The notes under the pieces: generated by a model
Seen by the model: the letters and a program-made list of their open reading frames with translations, nothing else
Told to the model about the DNA's origin: nothing
The model's database searches: none
NCBI RefSeq assembly: GCF_044324875.1
Contig: NZ_CP172185.1
Reading direction: 5' to 3' (one strand)
Source of the DNA: Escherichia coli
GTDB taxonomy: Bacteria > Pseudomonadota > Gammaproteobacteria > Enterobacterales > Enterobacteriaceae
DNA length: 64,000 nucleotides
Shown: positions 10,260 through 15,893 of the stretch, one piece after another
Position numbering within the stretch: the stretch's first letter is position 1
Layout: each line of letters starts with the position of its first letter
Made by a program: the position numbers and the translations under genes

Positions 10260-12749
10260 ATGGAGTTCGTCAGAGACTGGCAAAAACCGCGCCCCGCTAT
10301 CGGGCGCGAAGGCTTACCCGTACCTGAAACCGCACTGGATACCATCCTGAAGTGTTACCGCGCAGACGAAGAGCGCGCACTGCACGCTGAAGAGCAGGGT
10401 CATCCGCTTGCGGGCACAACCATCGGTAACGCGATCGACAAGTGGGAAGGCGCACAGGAGCGCCAGGAAGAGGCCATCACGCTCACACAGGAAGCGAGAA
10501 GACACCCGCCCACCCTTATTGAGGAAACCCTCAAAGAGCTGGACACCCTGCCCAAGTGGTTGAGGCTGCCGCTGATTAAGCACCTGAACTTTTTAAGGCG
10601 CAAACAGGAGGACGAACAGCAGAAAGGCAAGCGCGGCAAGGACACCCGCAAATATGAGCGCTTCCTGAAAAACGGCATCCCCGCACGTCTTCGCCGTATT
10701 CGTGAGATTAACGCTCGCTTTGCACCGTTAAGTTTTCAGGCCGCTGCCATGCGCGAGAGTCTGGAAGAACTGATCACACTGCCGAACCTGAGCCGTGAAC
10801 GCATCCAGAAAATAGCCGTACTGCTTGCCAGCGCCGTTAAAATGCATCTTGCCGACGCAATGGACAAGGCCCGCGAAATAACAGGGAACGACAAAGACGA
10901 CAACCTGAACAACTGGCTGATTGCCTACCAGTATATTGGTCGCCGTGTCCTGAAGCTGGGGATCACCCCACCATACTGGAGCGCCCTTGAACTCCGCCCC
11001 GACCGCAGAAGCCCCCCGGACGTGACACTGGTTCCGGGCGCTGTTTTGCGCCTGAACGACGCCGAATGGTGGAATAAAAAACTTCGCCAGATGCACGACG
11101 TCTGGCGTGAGGAACTTTTACGTGCAGCGGGCCTTGTATCCCGCCAGACCTCCGTTTATGTGAGCCGTGAAGCGCTGGCAGACTTCCGCGAAAAACAGGC
11201 CCGTACCCGCGATTTTCTCAAAGCGCACGACGTGGAGAACGAAGACGGCGAACGCATCAGTCTGGAAGATATCTACTACGCCAGTACATCCAACCCGCAT
11301 AACCGCCGCAACGAGATGATGGCGTGCGTTAAGGGAATGGAGCTTATCGCACAGGAACGCGGCGACGTGGCCTTCTTCGTCACGGTCACAGCCCCGTCTC
11401 GTTTTCACAGCGTCACCGACGCAGGCACGCTGAACCCGAAATACAAAGGCGCAACCGTAAAGGACGCCAGCGACTATCTGGTTTATAACTTCTTCGCCTC
11501 CGCCCGCAAACTCATCAAAAAAGAGAAGCGGGGCTGGTACGGCATTCGCACCGTGGAGCCTCACCACGACGGCACGCCCCACTGGCACATGCTGGTATTC
11601 ACAAGCCCTGAGAACGAAGAGCGCATCACGGAAATCATGTGCAATGCCGCCATTCGCGAAGACCGGGCAGAGCTGGGCGACGACATCACCCCGCGCTTCA
11701 AGTGCGAGAAGATAGATCCCGAAAAAGGCACGCCAACCAGCTACATCGCCACCTACATAGGCAAAGGCATTGACGCCGCTGCATTCGGCGACACGGATCC
11801 AAAAACAGGTAAACCGCCCGTTGACCACGAAAGCGGAAAACCTATGGCGGACACCGTGGAAAACGCCGTCGCCTGGGCGCGCCTGCATCGCATTCGCCAG
11901 TTCCAGTTCTTTGGCCTCCCTTCCCGTCAGGTGTGGCGTGAGTTCCGCCGCCTTGCCGGACAAATGGCACGCAACCCGAAGGGGCCGCAGGCACTGACCA
12001 ACCCCAAAGCCGACGCCCTCCTTGTTGCAGCCGATACGGGGTGTTTTGCCAGCTACATCATGCATCAGGGCGGTGTGCTCATTCCCCGTAGTGAATATCT
12101 GGCCCGCACAGCCTACGTCACCGCAGAAGAGCCGAACAATTACAGCGAATTCCCCGAGCGCATTTACGGTATCCGCATGCCGGAACTGGGGGAGGACTTC
12201 ACGTTATGCACCCACCCGGAAGAGTGGAAAATCGTCAGAAAGGAACCGGAACCAGACAACCGCACGGGCGAGGGTTTTGACCTTCAGGGCGGCCCCGCCG
12301 CCCCTTGGACTCGTGGCAATAACTGTCACCCTGACGAAAAAACAACCAACAACAGCACACAAACCGGACAGTCAGAGTGGGCAAAACTGCCCCCCTTACC
12401 CCCATCGTCGGACGGTTTTGTGAGCTGGTTTAAGTCGCTTAAGAGGCCGGACAGGAAAAAACTACAAAGATTGCTCAAAAAACGCACCGAAGAGAGTCGC
12501 CAGAACGCCAGCGGCGGCACCGACACACCCACCGACACCATTAACCTGGGCGTTGTGCTGCCGGAACTGCCGGAAATCGTGCAAGTCCGCCGCGATCTGG
12601 AAGCGCTGGGCGCGGACTTCCCCGAAGCAATGGCCCATTCCGTCTTTATGGGTGCCCGCGTTCGTCTGGGTAACGGTCGCACCGTTCACCGCGACGAGCA
12701 GACCGGGCGCATCACCGTCACCAGTCTGCAACCGGAGGCGAAACCATGA
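10260..12749 (+). CDS. A: Replication initiation protein, P2 gene A family (rolling-circle endonuclease)
   Basis: 829 aa; contains an HUH-type metal-binding motif (HDGTPHWHMLVF) and a downstream tyrosine motif (SYIATYIGKG), as in rolling-circle initiators; position as for P2 A. Confidence 0.85.
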   Translation: MEFVRDWQKPRPAIGREGLPVPETALDTILKCYRADEERALHAEEQGHPLAGTTIGNAIDKWEGAQERQEEAITLTQEARRHPPTLIEETLKELDTLPKWLRLPLIKHLNFLRRKQEDEQQKGKRGKDTRKYERFLKNGIPARLRRIREINARFAPLSFQAAAMRESLEELITLPNLSRERIQKIAVLLASAVKMHLADAMDKAREITGNDKDDNLNNWLIAYQYIGRRVLKLGITPPYWSALELRPDRRSPPDVTLVPGAVLRLNDAEWWNKKLRQMHDVWREELLRAAGLVSRQTSVYVSREALADFREKQARTRDFLKAHDVENEDGERISLEDIYYASTSNPHNRRNEMMACVKGMELIAQERGDVAFFVTVTAPSRFHSVTDAGTLNPKYKGATVKDASDYLVYNFFASARKLIKKEKRGWYGIRTVEPHHDGTPHWHMLVFTSPENEERITEIMCNAAIREDRAELGDDITPRFKCEKIDPEKGTPTSYIATYIGKGIDAAAFGDTDPKTGKPPVDHESGKPMADTVENAVAWARLHRIRQFQFFGLPSRQVWREFRRLAGQMARNPKGPQALTNPKADALLVAADTGCFASYIMHQGGVLIPRSEYLARTAYVTAEEPNNYSEFPERIYGIRMPELGEDFTLCTHPEEWKIVRKEPEPDNRTGEGFDLQGGPAAPWTRGNNCHPDEKTTNNSTQTGQSEWAKLPPLPPSSDGFVSWFKSLKRPDRKKLQRLLKKRTEESRQNASGGTDTPTDTINLGVVLPELPEIVQVRRDLEALGADFPEAMAHSVFMGARVRLGNGRTVHRDEQTGRITVTSLQPEAKP

Positions 12750-13156
12750 ACCGTTATCATTGTGTACTGCCGCGCCACTACTTCGGTCAGATTATGCGCT
12801 CGCGTATTCCGGCGGTCACGCTGCGAAACCTGAGCACGGTACCGCAGCCGGGCGATGAGCTGGAAATCGCCGTAGCAGGCCCTGACCGTTCAGCCAGCTG
12901 CGTGACCGCCGACGTGCTGAACGCCGTGCCCGTAGGTGGTGACTGGCTGGTTGCCATCCGCTTCCGCCAAGACCCGTTCGCACCTGAACCGCTCACCCCC
13001 GCAGGCCGCATCATGCAGAACTGGCGGGATGAAGGCGCGAAGGCGAACTGCGAAAAACTGATTAACAGGATTGCCACGACAAACCGACATGCCGCGCTGG
13101 CGCGCCGGATATACCCCGCAAAACCGACACAACCAACAGGAGTAAAACGCCCATGA
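12746..13156 (+). CDS. Hypothetical protein (136 aa), start overlaps the gene A stop
   Basis: ATGA overlap with A; unknown function. Confidence 0.5.
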   Translation: MNRYHCVLPRHYFGQIMRSRIPAVTLRNLSTVPQPGDELEIAVAGPDRSASCVTADVLNAVPVGGDWLVAIRFRQDPFAPEPLTPAGRIMQNWRDEGAKANCEKLINRIATTNRHAALARRIYPAKPTQPTGVKRP

Positions 13157-13292: not shown

Positions 13293-13667
13293 ATGAATAA
13301 ACAGGATTTTGGACTTGATACCCTTTTGAGTATGCATGGTTACCAGCATCACATGGATAACGGGTACTGGTGGAAAATTGAGGCTTACCGGGTAAGTCCA
13401 AGTCCGTTCAGACCTCACGGGATACGCTACAATCTGACGTTACATGACCGCTACAATTCGCGTGTGTTTGGTATGGACAACGCACATGGAATAAAACCGC
13501 CAAAGAAGGGAAGATTTACAGGAAAGTTAACTGTTTATGATCATGTGCACCGTACCCCGGTGGATAAAGGTTATCCCTATGAGTTTGTATCCGCAGAACA
13601 ATTGTTATCTGATTTCTTTGATAACGTTGATCGGCTCATTAACGAAGTTACAAAGGGGAAAGCATGA
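13293..13667 (+). CDS. Hypothetical small protein (124 aa), first gene of an overlapping two-gene module in the A-to-Q cargo region
   Basis: ORF with own upstream promoter-like region (direct repeats atgatttgtt / atgatttatt); stop overlaps the next start (ATGA). H/Y/W-rich; no motif I can assign with confidence. Confidence 0.6.
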   Translation: MNKQDFGLDTLLSMHGYQHHMDNGYWWKIEAYRVSPSPFRPHGIRYNLTLHDRYNSRVFGMDNAHGIKPPKKGRFTGKLTVYDHVHRTPVDKGYPYEFVSAEQLLSDFFDNVDRLINEVTKGKA

Positions 13668-14050
13668 AAGCCCGCATCGGGATCATCCCGGAAAAAGTCC
13701 TGCGTCAGCGCCTGATTGAAATTGCCAAGGGGGAGCGGAAACCACACCCCGACGAGCCAAGGGTATGGTTTTCATCCATCAATGCGGCGGGTCAGGCGCT
13801 GAGCAATGAAAATATCTCCCTTCTTCGTCTTATGGATGAGGAGAAACCGCAGACCATGACCGAACTTGCGGAGTTATCCGGCAGAAAACTGAGTAACCTG
13901 TCTGTAACCCTGAAAATGCTGAGCAGCTACGGTTTTGTCAGTCTGGAAAAGAAAGGAAATACCGTACACCCGAAGGCACTTTTTACCGATTTTGAAATCA
14001 TCGTTGATCCGTCCGTCGGTTCAGTACATCGCGCCACCGCCCGCCCCTGA
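13664..14050 (+). CDS. Putative winged-helix DNA-binding protein (128 aa), second gene of the two-gene module
   Basis: Central MarR/winged-helix-like segment (MTELAELSGRKLSNLSVTLKMLSSYGFVSLEKKG); translationally coupled to 13293..13667. Confidence 0.6.
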   Translation: MKARIGIIPEKVLRQRLIEIAKGERKPHPDEPRVWFSSINAAGQALSNENISLLRLMDEEKPQTMTELAELSGRKLSNLSVTLKMLSSYGFVSLEKKGNTVHPKALFTDFEIIVDPSVGSVHRATARP

Positions 14051-14063
14051 AGTGTGCAATAAA

Positions 14064-14090
14064 CAGCCCCGGTCGGGGCTGTTTTTTATT
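14064..14090. terminator. Bidirectional intrinsic terminator between the converging 13664..14050 and 14086..14460 genes
   Basis: cagcccc-ggtc-ggggctg hairpin followed by ttttttatt. Confidence 0.6.
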
Positions 14091-14460
14091 CCAGAATCAG
14101 CTGTTCAGGTGTGCAGCCGTACAGTCTGGCAAGGCGCTCAATATTTGCCCTGCGCGGGCGTTCTGTTCTTTCGAATTCGGACACGGTAGCCTGCCTGATA
14201 CCCAGCGCATCCGCCACCTGCTTTTGCGTCATTCCGCGATAGATTCGCCACGCCGCCTGCATGGTGCAGCCACGTTCCGAGAGGATGTTGACCACCTCGT
14301 TGGGATACAGCGTATCAGGCGATGCACTCGGTTCGTTCTGGACGTCCTCGTAGAGTTCGTCAAGGTCGCTGTCTCCTGCCAGTTTTTCAAACAACGCCAC
14401 TGGCAGAATGACGGATACCCTGTTACCCGCACCGTCAGTAATAAACTGAATCTGACTCAT
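14086..14460 (-). CDS. XRE-family helix-turn-helix protein (124 aa), candidate antitoxin
   Basis: C-terminal HTH_XRE-like segment (MTQKQVADALGIRQATVSEFERTERPRRANIERLARLYG); downstream of and co-oriented with a RelE/ParE-like ORF. Confidence 0.6.
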   Translation of the reverse strand: MSQIQFITDGAGNRVSVILPVALFEKLAGDSDLDELYEDVQNEPSASPDTLYPNEVVNILSERGCTMQAAWRIYRGMTQKQVADALGIRQATVSEFERTERPRRANIERLARLYGCTPEQLILE

Positions 14461-14533
14461 TTGCCCCTCCTGCTAAACATCGGTTTATTTTTTAATTTGC
14501 TGCCGGTGATAAAAAACGGCGGGTCGCCCCGCC

Positions 14534-14806
14534 TTAGTATGTTGTCGAGGTTCTCCGCTGAATACGGAGGATCCTGATAACCACTATCTGCCCTCCCTCA
14601 ATCGTGAACCTGACACGGTAATGATTTACCCTGAGTCTGTACTCCCCGCCCGAGTCAGTGAGCTTTTTAATATCCAGATTCTGGAACTTCGGATAGCCAT
14701 AAAGCGCGTTAACTTTCTCGCGTAAGGATTTCTGATCCCTCGCTGGCAAAACCCGTAAATCTTTGATTGCCCGAGGGGTCCACATGATTTCAGTCGTCAT
14801 AAACAC
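14534..14806 (-). CDS. RelE/ParE-superfamily toxin-like protein (about 88-90 aa; start GTG 14806 or ATG 14800)
   Basis: N-terminal ...WTPRAIKDLRVL... and C-terminal YRLRVNHYRVRF...IVVIRI segments resemble RelE/ParE/HigB-type toxins. Confidence 0.6.
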   Translation of the reverse strand: MFMTTEIMWTPRAIKDLRVLPARDQKSLREKVNALYGYPKFQNLDIKKLTDSGGEYRLRVNHYRVRFTIEGGQIVVIRILRIQRRTSTTY

Positions 14807-14851
14807 ACCGGAAGCAAATTATTAAAGAGCCGTGCCCGCTGGCACACCTTA

Positions 14852-14880
14852 AATATAGGTTTTAACCCCTATATTGTCAA
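14852..14880 (-). promoter_or_regulatory. Sigma70-like promoter (TTGACA-N17-TATATT on minus strand) with an embedded 7-bp inverted repeat operator, upstream of the RelE-like gene
   Basis: Minus-strand ttgaca / 17-bp spacer / tatatt; spacer contains atatagg...cctatat palindrome (plus 14853..14874). Confidence 0.55.
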
Positions 14881-15057
14881 ACAAAATCCCTATATCATGA
14901 AGTAAAAAAGCACCTCCCGCGACCTCCCTTTCCGGTGCACGAAAGTGCACAAATTTGCACAATTTTTTTGAACGACTTTTTGCCCTTCCGGCCCGTGTGG
15001 CGTCTGGATCCGTCGGGGATCCGTGCGTGCACGAAAAAAGGCCTTTTTCTGCGCGCA

Positions 15058-15076
15058 GGTGACGGGGGAACAGCCC
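15058..15076 (+). other. Candidate cos (cohesive end) 19-mer ggtgacgggggaacagccc
   Basis: GC-rich 19-mer in the non-coding region between early/cargo genes and the portal gene; matches 13 of 19 positions of the P2 cos sequence as I recall it (GGCGAGGCGGGGAAAGCAC). Tentative. Confidence 0.3.
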
Positions 15077-15389
15077 GCGTTTCAGGGGGTAAATAGCATT
15101 CCCTGAACGATGTTGCAGTGACACAACAGAATGGCTGTATTTCTCACGCTGAGCGTGAAAAAGACGTAAGGGCTTTTGATTTGATGGGGTGAAAGATAAG
15201 GCCGTCAAAATCGCACTGAGGCAGCGAGAATATGTCGTCAGAGTTGCGGGGTTGCGTAAGCATCCGCCCGGCGATGATGGCTACAGGGCTGGAGATGTTG
15301 TGAAATTATCTGAAGGAATAACCAGCTTGCAGGAGAACCCGGGCAAAGTCAGAATAGCGGCAGGCATCAACTCAAAAGAGGATAATGTC

Positions 15390-15893
15390 ATGAGCCACTT
15401 TAATGATTTATGCCAGATCAATCGTGAAGCTGAAGAAAAACGCGCTGAGGCAGCTCAAATTTTGCGGGATGAAGCGGCAAGGCTGATTGATTTCTATGAA
15501 GAATGGCTGGGGCTTCCATCCATGTACTGGGAAGACGATGATGGCGACCTGCACCGCTACGTGGAGACAGGCTTGCCATGTAAGACAGCGGCGGATTTTA
15601 GTCCTCTTTCAGTCCACAATATCGCATCTGCACCAGACAATATTTTCCGCATGGCCGTACGAACCTGGGTAAAGTCATCTGACAGCAGCTACCCGGTAAG
15701 CGTGGTTATTGCACTTGAATTATATTCAGTAGATGCGGAACGGGTGTCTCTGAGAGTCCGGGTGGAAGACGATATTTCTGTTCGCGTATTTATCAATAAA
15801 CCCAGCGAAGAAGCCTGGGGCGATGTTGTTATGCACATGAAAAAGCACATCGCTAATCACCTGAAAAAGCGAGCGCCATCAGCACTTCGTTAA
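15390..15893 (+). CDS. Hypothetical protein (167 aa from ATG 15390 with AAGAGG ribosome binding site), orphan gene next to the portal gene
   Basis: ORF 15189..15893 with best start at 15390; acidic, no recognisable motif; preceded by about 580 bp without credible coding potential. Confidence 0.55.
   Translation: MSHFNDLCQINREAEEKRAEAAQILRDEAARLIDFYEEWLGLPSMYWEDDDGDLHRYVETGLPCKTAADFSPLSVHNIASAPDNIFRMAVRTWVKSSDSSYPVSVVIALELYSVDAERVSLRVRVEDDISVRVFINKPSEEAWGDVVMHMKKHIANHLKKRAPSALR

Follow-up and report, generated by a model that had tools for sequence, protein, structure and literature searches.

Complementary arms bracket the toxin gene of a probable toxin-first RelE-type toxin-antitoxin operon in an Escherichia coli P2-like prophage and probably form a long-range messenger RNA helix

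The 64,000-nucleotide (nt) stretch of Escherichia coli DNA analysed here (contig NZ_CP172185.1; below, the window) carries on its minus strand a two-gene unit that is almost certainly a RelE-type toxin-antitoxin module. The toxin gene (14534..14800; 88 amino acids (aa) from the ATG at 14800, TAA stop at 14534-14536) comes first and the antitoxin gene (14086..14460; 124 aa) second; all features of the module lie on the minus strand, and the operon ends at a terminator at 14061-14084. A repeat search of the window revealed an inverted repeat of 21 nt, with 18 matches in 21 positions, on either side of the toxin gene; its arms are predicted to pair in the messenger RNA (mRNA) over the ribosome-binding site (RBS) of the toxin. 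It is very probable that this long-range helix is real and under selection, and we lean, with less assurance, towards the view that it acts by sequestering the toxin RBS as described below. The same cautious preference extends to the statement as a whole, namely that a type II operon, carried as cargo in a hotspot of a P2-like prophage, controls its toxin RBS by means of a helix. The protein pair is of the RelE plus helix-turn-helix (HTH), or HigBA2-like, kind and is already annotated in RefSeq, while the regulatory RNA architecture is apparently undescribed. An earlier, first-pass annotation of this DNA missed the second half of the device, the 21-nt arm that follows a T-run between the genes and is complementary to the toxin 5' untranslated region (UTR) and RBS.

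Arm A (14806..14826, minus strand) lies in the toxin 5'UTR, reads UUUAAUAAUUUGCUUCCGGUG in the mRNA and ends 6 nt before the ATG; it includes the weak Shine-Dalgarno (SD) sequence of the toxin (GGUG) and part of a conserved box, GYTCTTTAAMAATTTRC. Its partner, arm A' (14488..14508, minus strand), is placed in the toxin-antitoxin spacer right after the T-run, reads CACCGGCAGCAAAUUAAAAAA and is complementary to arm A together with the toxin SD. The complementarity of the two arms in the window reaches a Smith-Waterman z-score of 7.3 (0 of 200 shuffles), the duplex has a predicted energy of -21.7 kcal/mol, and the fold of a 409-nt transcript contains the helix in both its minimum-free-energy and its centroid structure. 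The probability that the toxin SD is paired to the spacer is 0.88 in the window, with similar values in 16 of 25 relatives, and truncation of the transcript at the GC-rich hairpin that follows the toxin stop is predicted by folding to raise the probability of an unpaired SD from 0.12 to 0.41. The antitoxin gene, as read from the sequence, has a strong SD, AGGAGGGG (14464..14471, minus strand), and the predicted duplex with the anti-SD amounts to -10.8 kcal/mol at the antitoxin site versus -3.0 kcal/mol at the toxin site. RNAduplex run over the whole UTR and spacer was non-discriminating, as shuffles also gave large energies, and local complementarity tests were used instead. An Rfam scan of 13900-15100 returned no family.

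The comparative set comprised 36 distinct related loci, a modest sample. The bracket is significant against shuffles in 17 of the 21 loci whose toxin is at least 50% identical, and additionally in the distant locus L241 (18 of 36 overall); at these loci the arms always occupy -32..-6 in the UTR and +25..+54 in the spacer, with z-scores of 3-10. The arm sequences are locus-specific (CCGGUG/CACCGG in the window, ACAGGGGA/UCCCUCUGU in Citrobacter, CAUGGAGAGGC/GCCUCUCCAUG in Leclercia), and the complementarity of UTR and spacer is higher in cognate pairs than in non-cognate combinations (0 of 20000 permutations). RNAalifold yields a consensus helix of 12 pairs, 9 of them compensatory. When pairs are counted, 88% of the cells are paired versus 30-53% when the partners are slid, double-change cells number 35 versus 13.8 +/- 2.7 in shuffles (0 of 500), and the covariation score is 0.564 versus 0.253 in shuffled alignments (again 0 of 500). 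The in-register alignment contains 21 G.U and 9 A.C cells, favouring pairing of the mRNA strand.

These data bear on two explanations that do without the long-range RNA pairing. Stem-loops at 5' ends and between cistrons are well-known mRNA stabilisers, and the hairpins of this operon could serve only as such, the 5'-terminal one against RNase E and the internal or 3' GC-rich one against exonucleases, with the complementarity arising from an A/T-rich box that occurs twice. The box GYTCTTTAAMAATTT is indeed conserved in sequence and partly palindromic (AACAATTTGTT). The complementarity, however, reaches past the box into the non-palindromic, locus-specific part adjacent to the SD (the arm pairs listed above), and cognate partners outscore non-cognate ones; hence we consider this explanation very unlikely. 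The arms might also act at the level of DNA, as the inverted repeats of a mobile or invertible toxin cassette or as paired sites for a DNA-binding protein. A single gene between inverted repeats is what an invertible or mobile segment would look like, the toxin is the faster-diverging partner, one lineage has the gene order reversed, and one strand-bias test was null. Nevertheless, no recombinase or transposase is consistently linked to the loci across phage, plasmid and chromosomal contexts, one arm always lies over the toxin SD at -32..-6, and loci with one HTH and operator in common have different arms, which are therefore not sites of the antitoxin. In addition, the in-register excess of G.U over A.C and the GNRA loops of the adjacent hairpin are as expected of RNA, which leaves a DNA-level role with hardly any probability.

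Several observations weigh against a selected helix that silences the toxin. The structure scored in the pair counting came from the same alignment, and the two measures that depend least on relatedness are only borderline (double-change pairs, 9 versus 6.5, 16 of 500 shuffles; further pair types, 20 versus 17.1, 33 of 500). Looser, extended alignments gave no G.U strand bias (16 versus 14). The thermodynamic control is weak, as shuffled spacers in the window still give a mean pairing probability of 0.37 and a maximum of 0.89. Eighteen of the 36 distinct loci are without a significant bracket; these are mostly distant relatives and loci with short spacers and include Photorhabdus, Pantoea, a Pasteurella phage, L232 and L109, and no significant bracket was found in a Xenorhabdus variant with reversed gene order. 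Efficient termination at the hairpin and T-run, should it occur in this copy, is hard to square with the production of enough antitoxin from a gene for which no promoter of its own was detected. Finally, the structural model of the toxin joined to the antitoxin is a fused chain and not a true complex prediction, and the entire functional layer, that is toxicity, neutralisation, transcript ends and translation rates, is inference from sequence and models.

Between the two arms, directly after the toxin TAA, stands the GC hairpin GGCGGG-GCGA-CCCGCC (14518..14533, minus strand; -14.0 kcal/mol), 73 nt upstream of the antitoxin ATG. It is followed by the T-run GTTTTTTAT (14509..14517, minus strand), and in this copy the two constitute an intrinsic-terminator-like site: the terminator scan reports the hairpin and then GTTTTTTATC, with six G-C pairs, a 4-nt loop and G plus UUUUUU. 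The first-pass annotation had noted both elements between the genes (hairpin at 14533-14518), where they are indeed present, and had proposed that partial termination sets the toxin:antitoxin ratio. In 27 of the 36 distinct loci a perfect GC-rich hairpin is found no more than 42 nt from the toxin stop, usually as GGCGGGG-GNRA-CCCGCC and with loops that are mostly GNRA. In a 22-sequence alignment 87% of the hairpin cells are paired versus 42-64% with slid partners, five of the six pairs show a double change (e.g., in Ewingella and the Pasteurella phage), and an outer stem that includes the stop codon appears compensatory by eye (TAAAG/CTTTA, TGATG/CGTCA, TGAAG/CTTCA). The T-run is not conserved. 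At least five T occur in the next 8 nt in only 3 of the 27 family hairpins and at least four in 6 of 27, and most tails are C-rich, such as GCCCTTCT and CCGTCAAC. As the family keeps the hairpin and not the T-run, termination would be a feature of this copy rather than a family-wide function. The proposal of ratio-setting termination thus does not describe the conserved role of the hairpin, yet it may still hold here: the T-run of the E. coli copy lies exactly between the GC hairpin and arm A', and termination may set the ratio, since it would decide on the inclusion of the silencing arm in the transcript.

The simplest use of such a site would be that of a leaky intrinsic terminator, whose read-through frequency alone sets the toxin:antitoxin ratio while the flanking complementarity has no function. 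The window shows the standard features (six G-C pairs, a GNRA loop, -14 kcal/mol, six U after one base), and as no separate antitoxin promoter was detected, read-through must occur. Against this stand the rarity of the T-run among the conserved family hairpins, the direction of the effect, since termination alone would leave more toxin than antitoxin, which is wrong for a viable module, and the co-varying arms, which are left unexplained. We therefore regard a leaky terminator acting alone as improbable.

In the mechanism that we propose, the antitoxin, alone or with the toxin, would repress the promoter at an operator built of ATATAGGG motifs. On the read-through transcript, the downstream arm would pair with the 5'UTR arm at the energy given above (-21.7 kcal/mol) and occlude an already weak toxin RBS, and toxin synthesis would be confined to the brief period that precedes transcription of the spacer. 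The strong RBS of the antitoxin would stay open, and antitoxin would exceed toxin despite the toxin-first order. Transcripts ending at the GC hairpin would lack the silencing arm and be toxin-competent; such ends could arise by T-run termination in this E. coli copy or by 3' trimming in the relatives, and the GC hairpin would separate toxin-off from toxin-on mRNA. What sets the ratio would be the presence or absence of the silencing arm in the transcript, and not gene dosage downstream of a terminator. Transcription of the pair as one unit without processing would remain compatible with translational sequestration.

Two variants of this mechanism may be considered. A hok-like mRNA logic is possible, although we would not expect it: the full-length message would be toxin-silent, and termination at the GC hairpin, or 3'-to-5' trimming back to it, would remove the antitoxin cistron and arm A' and leave a long-lived toxin-only mRNA with an open RBS and a hairpin cap at both ends. 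Conservation of the hairpin but not of the T-run would thereby be accounted for, as would the constant position of the hairpin between the toxin stop and the silencing arm. If it is true, then after a stop in transcription, through phage shut-off or loss of the element, the stable pool would go on making toxin while antitoxin is not replenished, and an RNA-level timer would act on top of the labile-antitoxin mechanism. Alternatively, the helix could be a processing stalk for RNase III, whose cleavage of the 21-27-bp duplex would remove the toxin 5'UTR and RBS, split the two cistrons from each other, inactivate the toxin message and free the antitoxin mRNA. The duplex is long enough and nearly perfect (18 of 21 positions in the window, 23-27 aligned positions in relatives), it encloses a single cistron, the 5' hairpin and the stop-adjacent one would provide stable ends, and all the comparative evidence applies to it as much as to RBS occlusion. 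Bulges and mismatches nevertheless occur at varying helix positions, and simple occlusion of the RBS already accounts for a conserved arm over the SD, which makes a stalk unlikely in our view. RNase III cleavage, hok-like 3' trimming and occlusion are variants that are not separable by the present analysis.

The transcript would start at a sigma-70 promoter (14852..14880, minus strand) with TTGACA at 14880-14875 as its -35 and TATATT at 14857-14852 as its -10 element; the promoter scan gives TTGACA-17-TATATT, which matches the consensus at 11 of 12 positions. The spacer holds the palindrome AATATAGG/CCTATATT, with arms at 14852-14859 and 14868-14875 that are complementary in 8 of 8 positions, and the operator inverted repeat on the minus strand, ATATAGG(G)-N8-CCTATAT, overlaps the -10 element. 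A direct half-site, ATATAGGG, is found further upstream (14888..14895, minus strand). Only two exact ATATAGGG copies occur in the whole window, both at this promoter (14867-14874 and 14888-14895), and an inverted copy matching in 7 of 8 positions lies at 14853-14860. The ATATAGGG/CCCTATAT layout is kept in the copies from E. coli, Klebsiella, Morganella, Serratia, Citrobacter and Enterobacter. Close relatives have one or two upstream ATATAGGG copies and then TTGACA-AT-ATAGGG-N4-6-CCCTAT-ATT, the last arm being the -10 element, and distant relatives with a diverged HTH show the same geometry with other half-sites (ATAAG.., TTATAAC..). The near-consensus promoter with a spacer palindrome, read at first pass as typical of autorepressed operons, is thus a layout conserved in the family, and the ATATAGGG cluster looks like an autoregulation-type operator with putative binding. 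Region-wide counts of promoter-like (5 versus 2.5) and terminator-like (7 versus 2.6) sites are only in modest excess over shuffles, so it is chiefly conservation in relatives that speaks for the reality of these particular sites. The promoter scan revealed no sigma-70-like promoter for the antitoxin gene, although a non-consensus promoter could have been missed, and no antisense RNA or promoter at the locus.

The predicted 5' end of the transcript forms a hairpin (14831..14846, minus strand; core GUGCC-AGCG-GGCAC, -10.8 kcal/mol, z -2.15). Eighteen loci of differing sequence have a hairpin at this position (mean z -2.0), and RNAalifold gave no consensus for this region, in which the arms are not alignable and the loop lengths differ, so that its support is per sequence only. 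Behind the hairpin follows a box, G(C/T)TCTTTAA (window 14827-14835), that has the corresponding position in all relatives and is kept even in distant ones with other operators and arms. It resembles the anti-SD end of 16S rRNA, and in the predicted fold of the window its GCUCUUU pairs with GAGGGGC of the antitoxin SD via three G.U pairs.

The first-pass reading of a toxin-first RelE/ParE gene with an XRE-type HTH gene behind it is borne out by the gene order and by profile matches of both proteins. The toxin matches Pfam ParE_toxin PF05016 over residues 7-81 (independent E-value 4.7e-9) and phrog_1213, 'RelE-like toxin' (1.2e-14); its score against NCBIfam RelE_StbE (TIGR02385), 22.6 bits, is under the curated cut-off of 27.9. 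The Pfam search gave PF05016 only, and no Gp49 (PF05973)/HigB homology. The open reading frame (ORF) runs over 14534-14806 from a GTG, the family-consistent start is the ATG at 14800, and RefSeq annotates the same 267-nt coding sequence. In one E. coli genome (L245) the annotation pipeline starts the toxin at an internal ATG, 14785 (83 aa), and that copy carries A20V; the family alignment backs 14800 over 14785.

By sequence and by fold, the closest solved toxin is M. jannaschii RelE3 (3bpq), with a sequence E-value of 3.7e-4 and a Foldseek E-value of 3e-4 (template modelling score 0.68 on the target). M. tuberculosis RelE1 and RelE2, P. horikoshii RelE and YoeB come next, whereas in the Foldseek ranking of the PDB ParE appears at rank 17 or lower and P. 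vulgaris HigB at rank 19. The AlphaFold2 model of the toxin fused to the antitoxin (mean predicted local distance difference test (pLDDT) 78.6, predicted template modelling score 0.72; toxin part, pLDDT 85-95) has the RelE microbial RNase fold, beta-alpha-alpha followed by a four-stranded sheet. Residues R55, R57, Y61, R62, R82, R83 and Y88 are invariant or nearly so in the family. Five of them, R55, R57, R62, R82 and Y88, are invariant or at least 90% conserved in 30 family members and align with K52, K54, R61, R81 and Y87 of E. coli RelE (phmmer alignment to RelE of 4v7k), which we take, from RelE-ribosome work, to have active-site roles and to be absent from the gyrase-poisoning ParE. By modelled fold and aligned active-site residues the toxin is a RelE-type protein. 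With RelE and YoeB as the top fold matches, ParE lower and the five residues conserved, it is therefore read as a predicted mRNA interferase and not a gyrase poison.

The antitoxin consists of a RelB-like N-terminal beta-beta-alpha region (residues ~4-30), an acidic linker (31-52) and an XRE HTH (54-121). It matches HTH_3 at residues 72-121 (8.6e-11), HTH_31 (4.4e-10) and, over its full length, phrog_7241 (1.3e-29). A profile search of the N-terminus had been suggested at first pass; when run, it found that the N-terminal 54 residues match the RelB-like family PF18506, presumably built on archaeal (M. jannaschii) RelB, in 10 of 22 family members at E-values of 1e-3 or below (best 3.7e-8). A search of PDB sequences with a profile of this N-terminus returned spurious repeat-protein matches only. 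Modelled alone, residues 4-30 form a beta-hairpin and a helix and residues 31-52 have a pLDDT of ~52; in the toxin-fused model, which is a fused chain and not a true complex model, the pLDDT of 31-52 rises to ~80 with a strand at 37-39. This suggests that the linker, as modelled, becomes ordered in dependence on the toxin. The antitoxin is thus a RelB-like N-terminal region joined to a C-terminal XRE HTH. The C-terminal position of the HTH, remarked upon at first pass as unlike typical HigA, is correct but not novel, since V. cholerae HigA2 has the same order, with toxin neutralisation by an N-terminal segment and, at the C-terminus, an XRE-type HTH domain for dimerisation and DNA binding (PMC5416850).

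The likeness to VcHigBA2 extends to the toxin gene being first, a RelE-like toxin that is not a classical HigB, and a modular antitoxin with a C-terminal HTH. In contrast, PDB sequence searches at E-values up to 1 return no HigB, VcHigB2 or HigA2 chains for either protein, the N-terminus is here predicted to be a folded RelB-like beta-beta-alpha unit with an acidic linker whereas that of VcHigA2 is a disordered helix-then-strand segment, and a structured 73-nt spacer separates the genes. M. jannaschii RelBE3 (3BPQ) and the RelE-StbE group offer the closest solved toxin and the RelB-like PF18506 match of the antitoxin N-terminus; relative to relBE, however, the gene order is reversed and the antitoxin is not a small wrap-around protein but has an XRE HTH. 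At the RNA level, type I toxin mRNAs such as hok/sok with its fbi element close the toxin RBS in the full-length RNA by long-range pairing of the 5' leader with a downstream segment (PMC3874152). Leader-downstream pairing over the toxin RBS, its opening upon removal of the partner and stable terminal hairpins are common to both, here as predictions, but the present operon has a protein antitoxin (type II), and the downstream partner lies between two cistrons and not at the 3' end. The likeness to the RNase III stalks of rRNA genes and phage early mRNAs consists in complementary flanks of one gene that form a duplex of about 20 bp or more; here the flanks enclose a protein-coding cistron of 267 nt whose SD is part of one arm.

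The operons parD (kis-kid of plasmid R1), mqsRA, hicAB and some higBA rely on limited decay of the polycistronic mRNA, on translational coupling or on internal promoters. Antitoxin is thereby kept above toxin post-transcriptionally or by extra promoters, as it would be here, although no internal promoter was detected in our operon. We know of no operon of the parD type described with a co-varying helix around the toxin cistron, and a non-exhaustive survey of full-text literature found no long-range RBS sequestration described for a type II operon. Toxin-first type II operons face a dosage problem, in that antitoxin has to exceed toxin although the toxin is transcribed and translated first; the answers described are extra promoters, coupling and differential decay. 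A co-varying helix that clamps the toxin RBS would, if true, be a further solution, linked to a stop-adjacent hairpin marking the message end, and would mean that an operon with a protein antitoxin uses a device characteristic of type I (RNA-antitoxin) systems. Members of the family are carried by P2-like phages, P4-like satellites, phage-plasmids and plasmids, in many cases within a proven anti-phage hotspot, and an RNA switch could sense the transcription shut-off of an infection.

Copies of the 851-bp module that are 98.7-100% identical occur in 9 of 5426 complete E. coli genomes, within a P2-like prophage between the replication endonuclease gene and the portal, terminase and capsid genes; RefSeq names the products there 'type II toxin-antitoxin system RelE family toxin' and 'helix-turn-helix domain-containing protein'. 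The position between the replication and portal genes is a documented hotspot for anti-phage cargo (PMC9122126, PMC9519451). The conserved P88-like backbone resumes at ~14936; a P2-type cos site suspected directly upstream of the promoter was not located, the search yielding only this resumption and no cos position. In PADLOC-DB v2 the toxin has no match and the antitoxin generic HTH matches only (E-values of at least 6.7e-6). A role in phage exclusion, abortive infection or stabilisation of the element may be inferred from location only.

The module DNA had no match in a phage collection, and relatives were reached by protein-level search. About 40 antitoxin homologues with 51-79% identity are spread across Enterobacterales, and an antitoxin-profile scan of genome contigs yielded 10 true full-length relatives among the 80 loci listed. 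A word-based search with the toxin found E. coli copies only; a diverged homologous toxin ending in RRTS.TY was found upstream of the antitoxin in the loci of the relatives themselves. The toxin precedes the antitoxin in most of the ~48 relative loci, with a few orphans and one reversed order. P2-like prophages of Klebsiella and Serratia carry relatives at the same hotspot, and other contexts are a P4-like satellite, plasmids, other phages and chromosomal sites. In a metagenome scan for the operator palindrome ATATAGGG-N3-8-CCCTATA, none of the at least 120 stretches listed encodes the toxin or the antitoxin. Two divergent E. coli copies carry 16 (H9) and 8 (H8) substitutions, all of them outside the regulatory elements.

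The toxin diverges much faster than the antitoxin (54-70% versus 69-79% identity), and the HTH half of the antitoxin hardly varies across the family. Antitoxin homologues without an intact toxin are found at L002, L004, L005, L011, L099 and L242. In Rahnella bruchi (L002) the toxin is reduced to its C-terminal two-thirds, with hicA/hicB-like genes upstream as judged by eye, and in two Photorhabdus loci just the last toxin codons and the hairpin are left; such orphan antitoxins could serve as anti-addiction or immunity genes. The reversed order occurs in Xenorhabdus bovienii (L097, L107 and L108), on an element with a TelK protelomerase. There the promoter with the ATATAGGG operator directly drives the antitoxin, and a true terminator is next. 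The toxin (50% identical) is encoded 228 nt further on; it is preceded by an AT-rich region of its own and lacks the GC hairpin. What looked like an anti-SD behind the stop codon of the toxin in this variant was within chance (101 of 500), and the variant adjoins a Gp49/HigB plus HTH_37/HigA pair.

The terminator at the end of the operon (14061..14084) is bidirectional by the terminator scan (-17.9 and -17.4 kcal/mol on the two strands, z -4.8 and -3.7) and is shared with a second, convergent two-gene unit of the same hotspot (13293-14050, plus strand). The first gene of this unit encodes a 124-aa protein, DUF6516 in RefSeq, and overlaps the next by 4 nt; no match for it was found in the Pfam copy used, NCBIfam, PHROGs or PADLOC. 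The second encodes a 128-aa winged-helix protein, 'HVO_A0114 family', with a weak ArsR-type match and phrog_11214. The unit could be another toxin-antitoxin-like or defence pair. The cargo is flanked by ORFs at 12746-13156 and 15189-15893, both on the plus strand, which match phrog_14984 (3.9e-40) and phrog_5091 (3.5e-52), respectively, and have no NCBIfam or PADLOC match; a later RefSeq start shortens the product of 15189-15893 to 198 aa. Within the module, a 7-codon ORF (MFSRRGK*) across the antitoxin ATG lacks an SD as well as counterparts in relatives and is treated as chance. A subgroup with long toxin-antitoxin spacers of 168-186 nt (L085-L094 and L102) has a spacer ORF of 16-19 codons, absent from the window, with a strong SD (AAGGAG/TTAGGAG). 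In every case its end and the antitoxin ATG are 38-43 nt apart, with an AT hairpin behind the ORF. Its peptide usually bears a basic R(R)RI(S/R) tail, e.g., MPKIISSGLRSRRRIS, and may be a leader peptide or a third component of the system.

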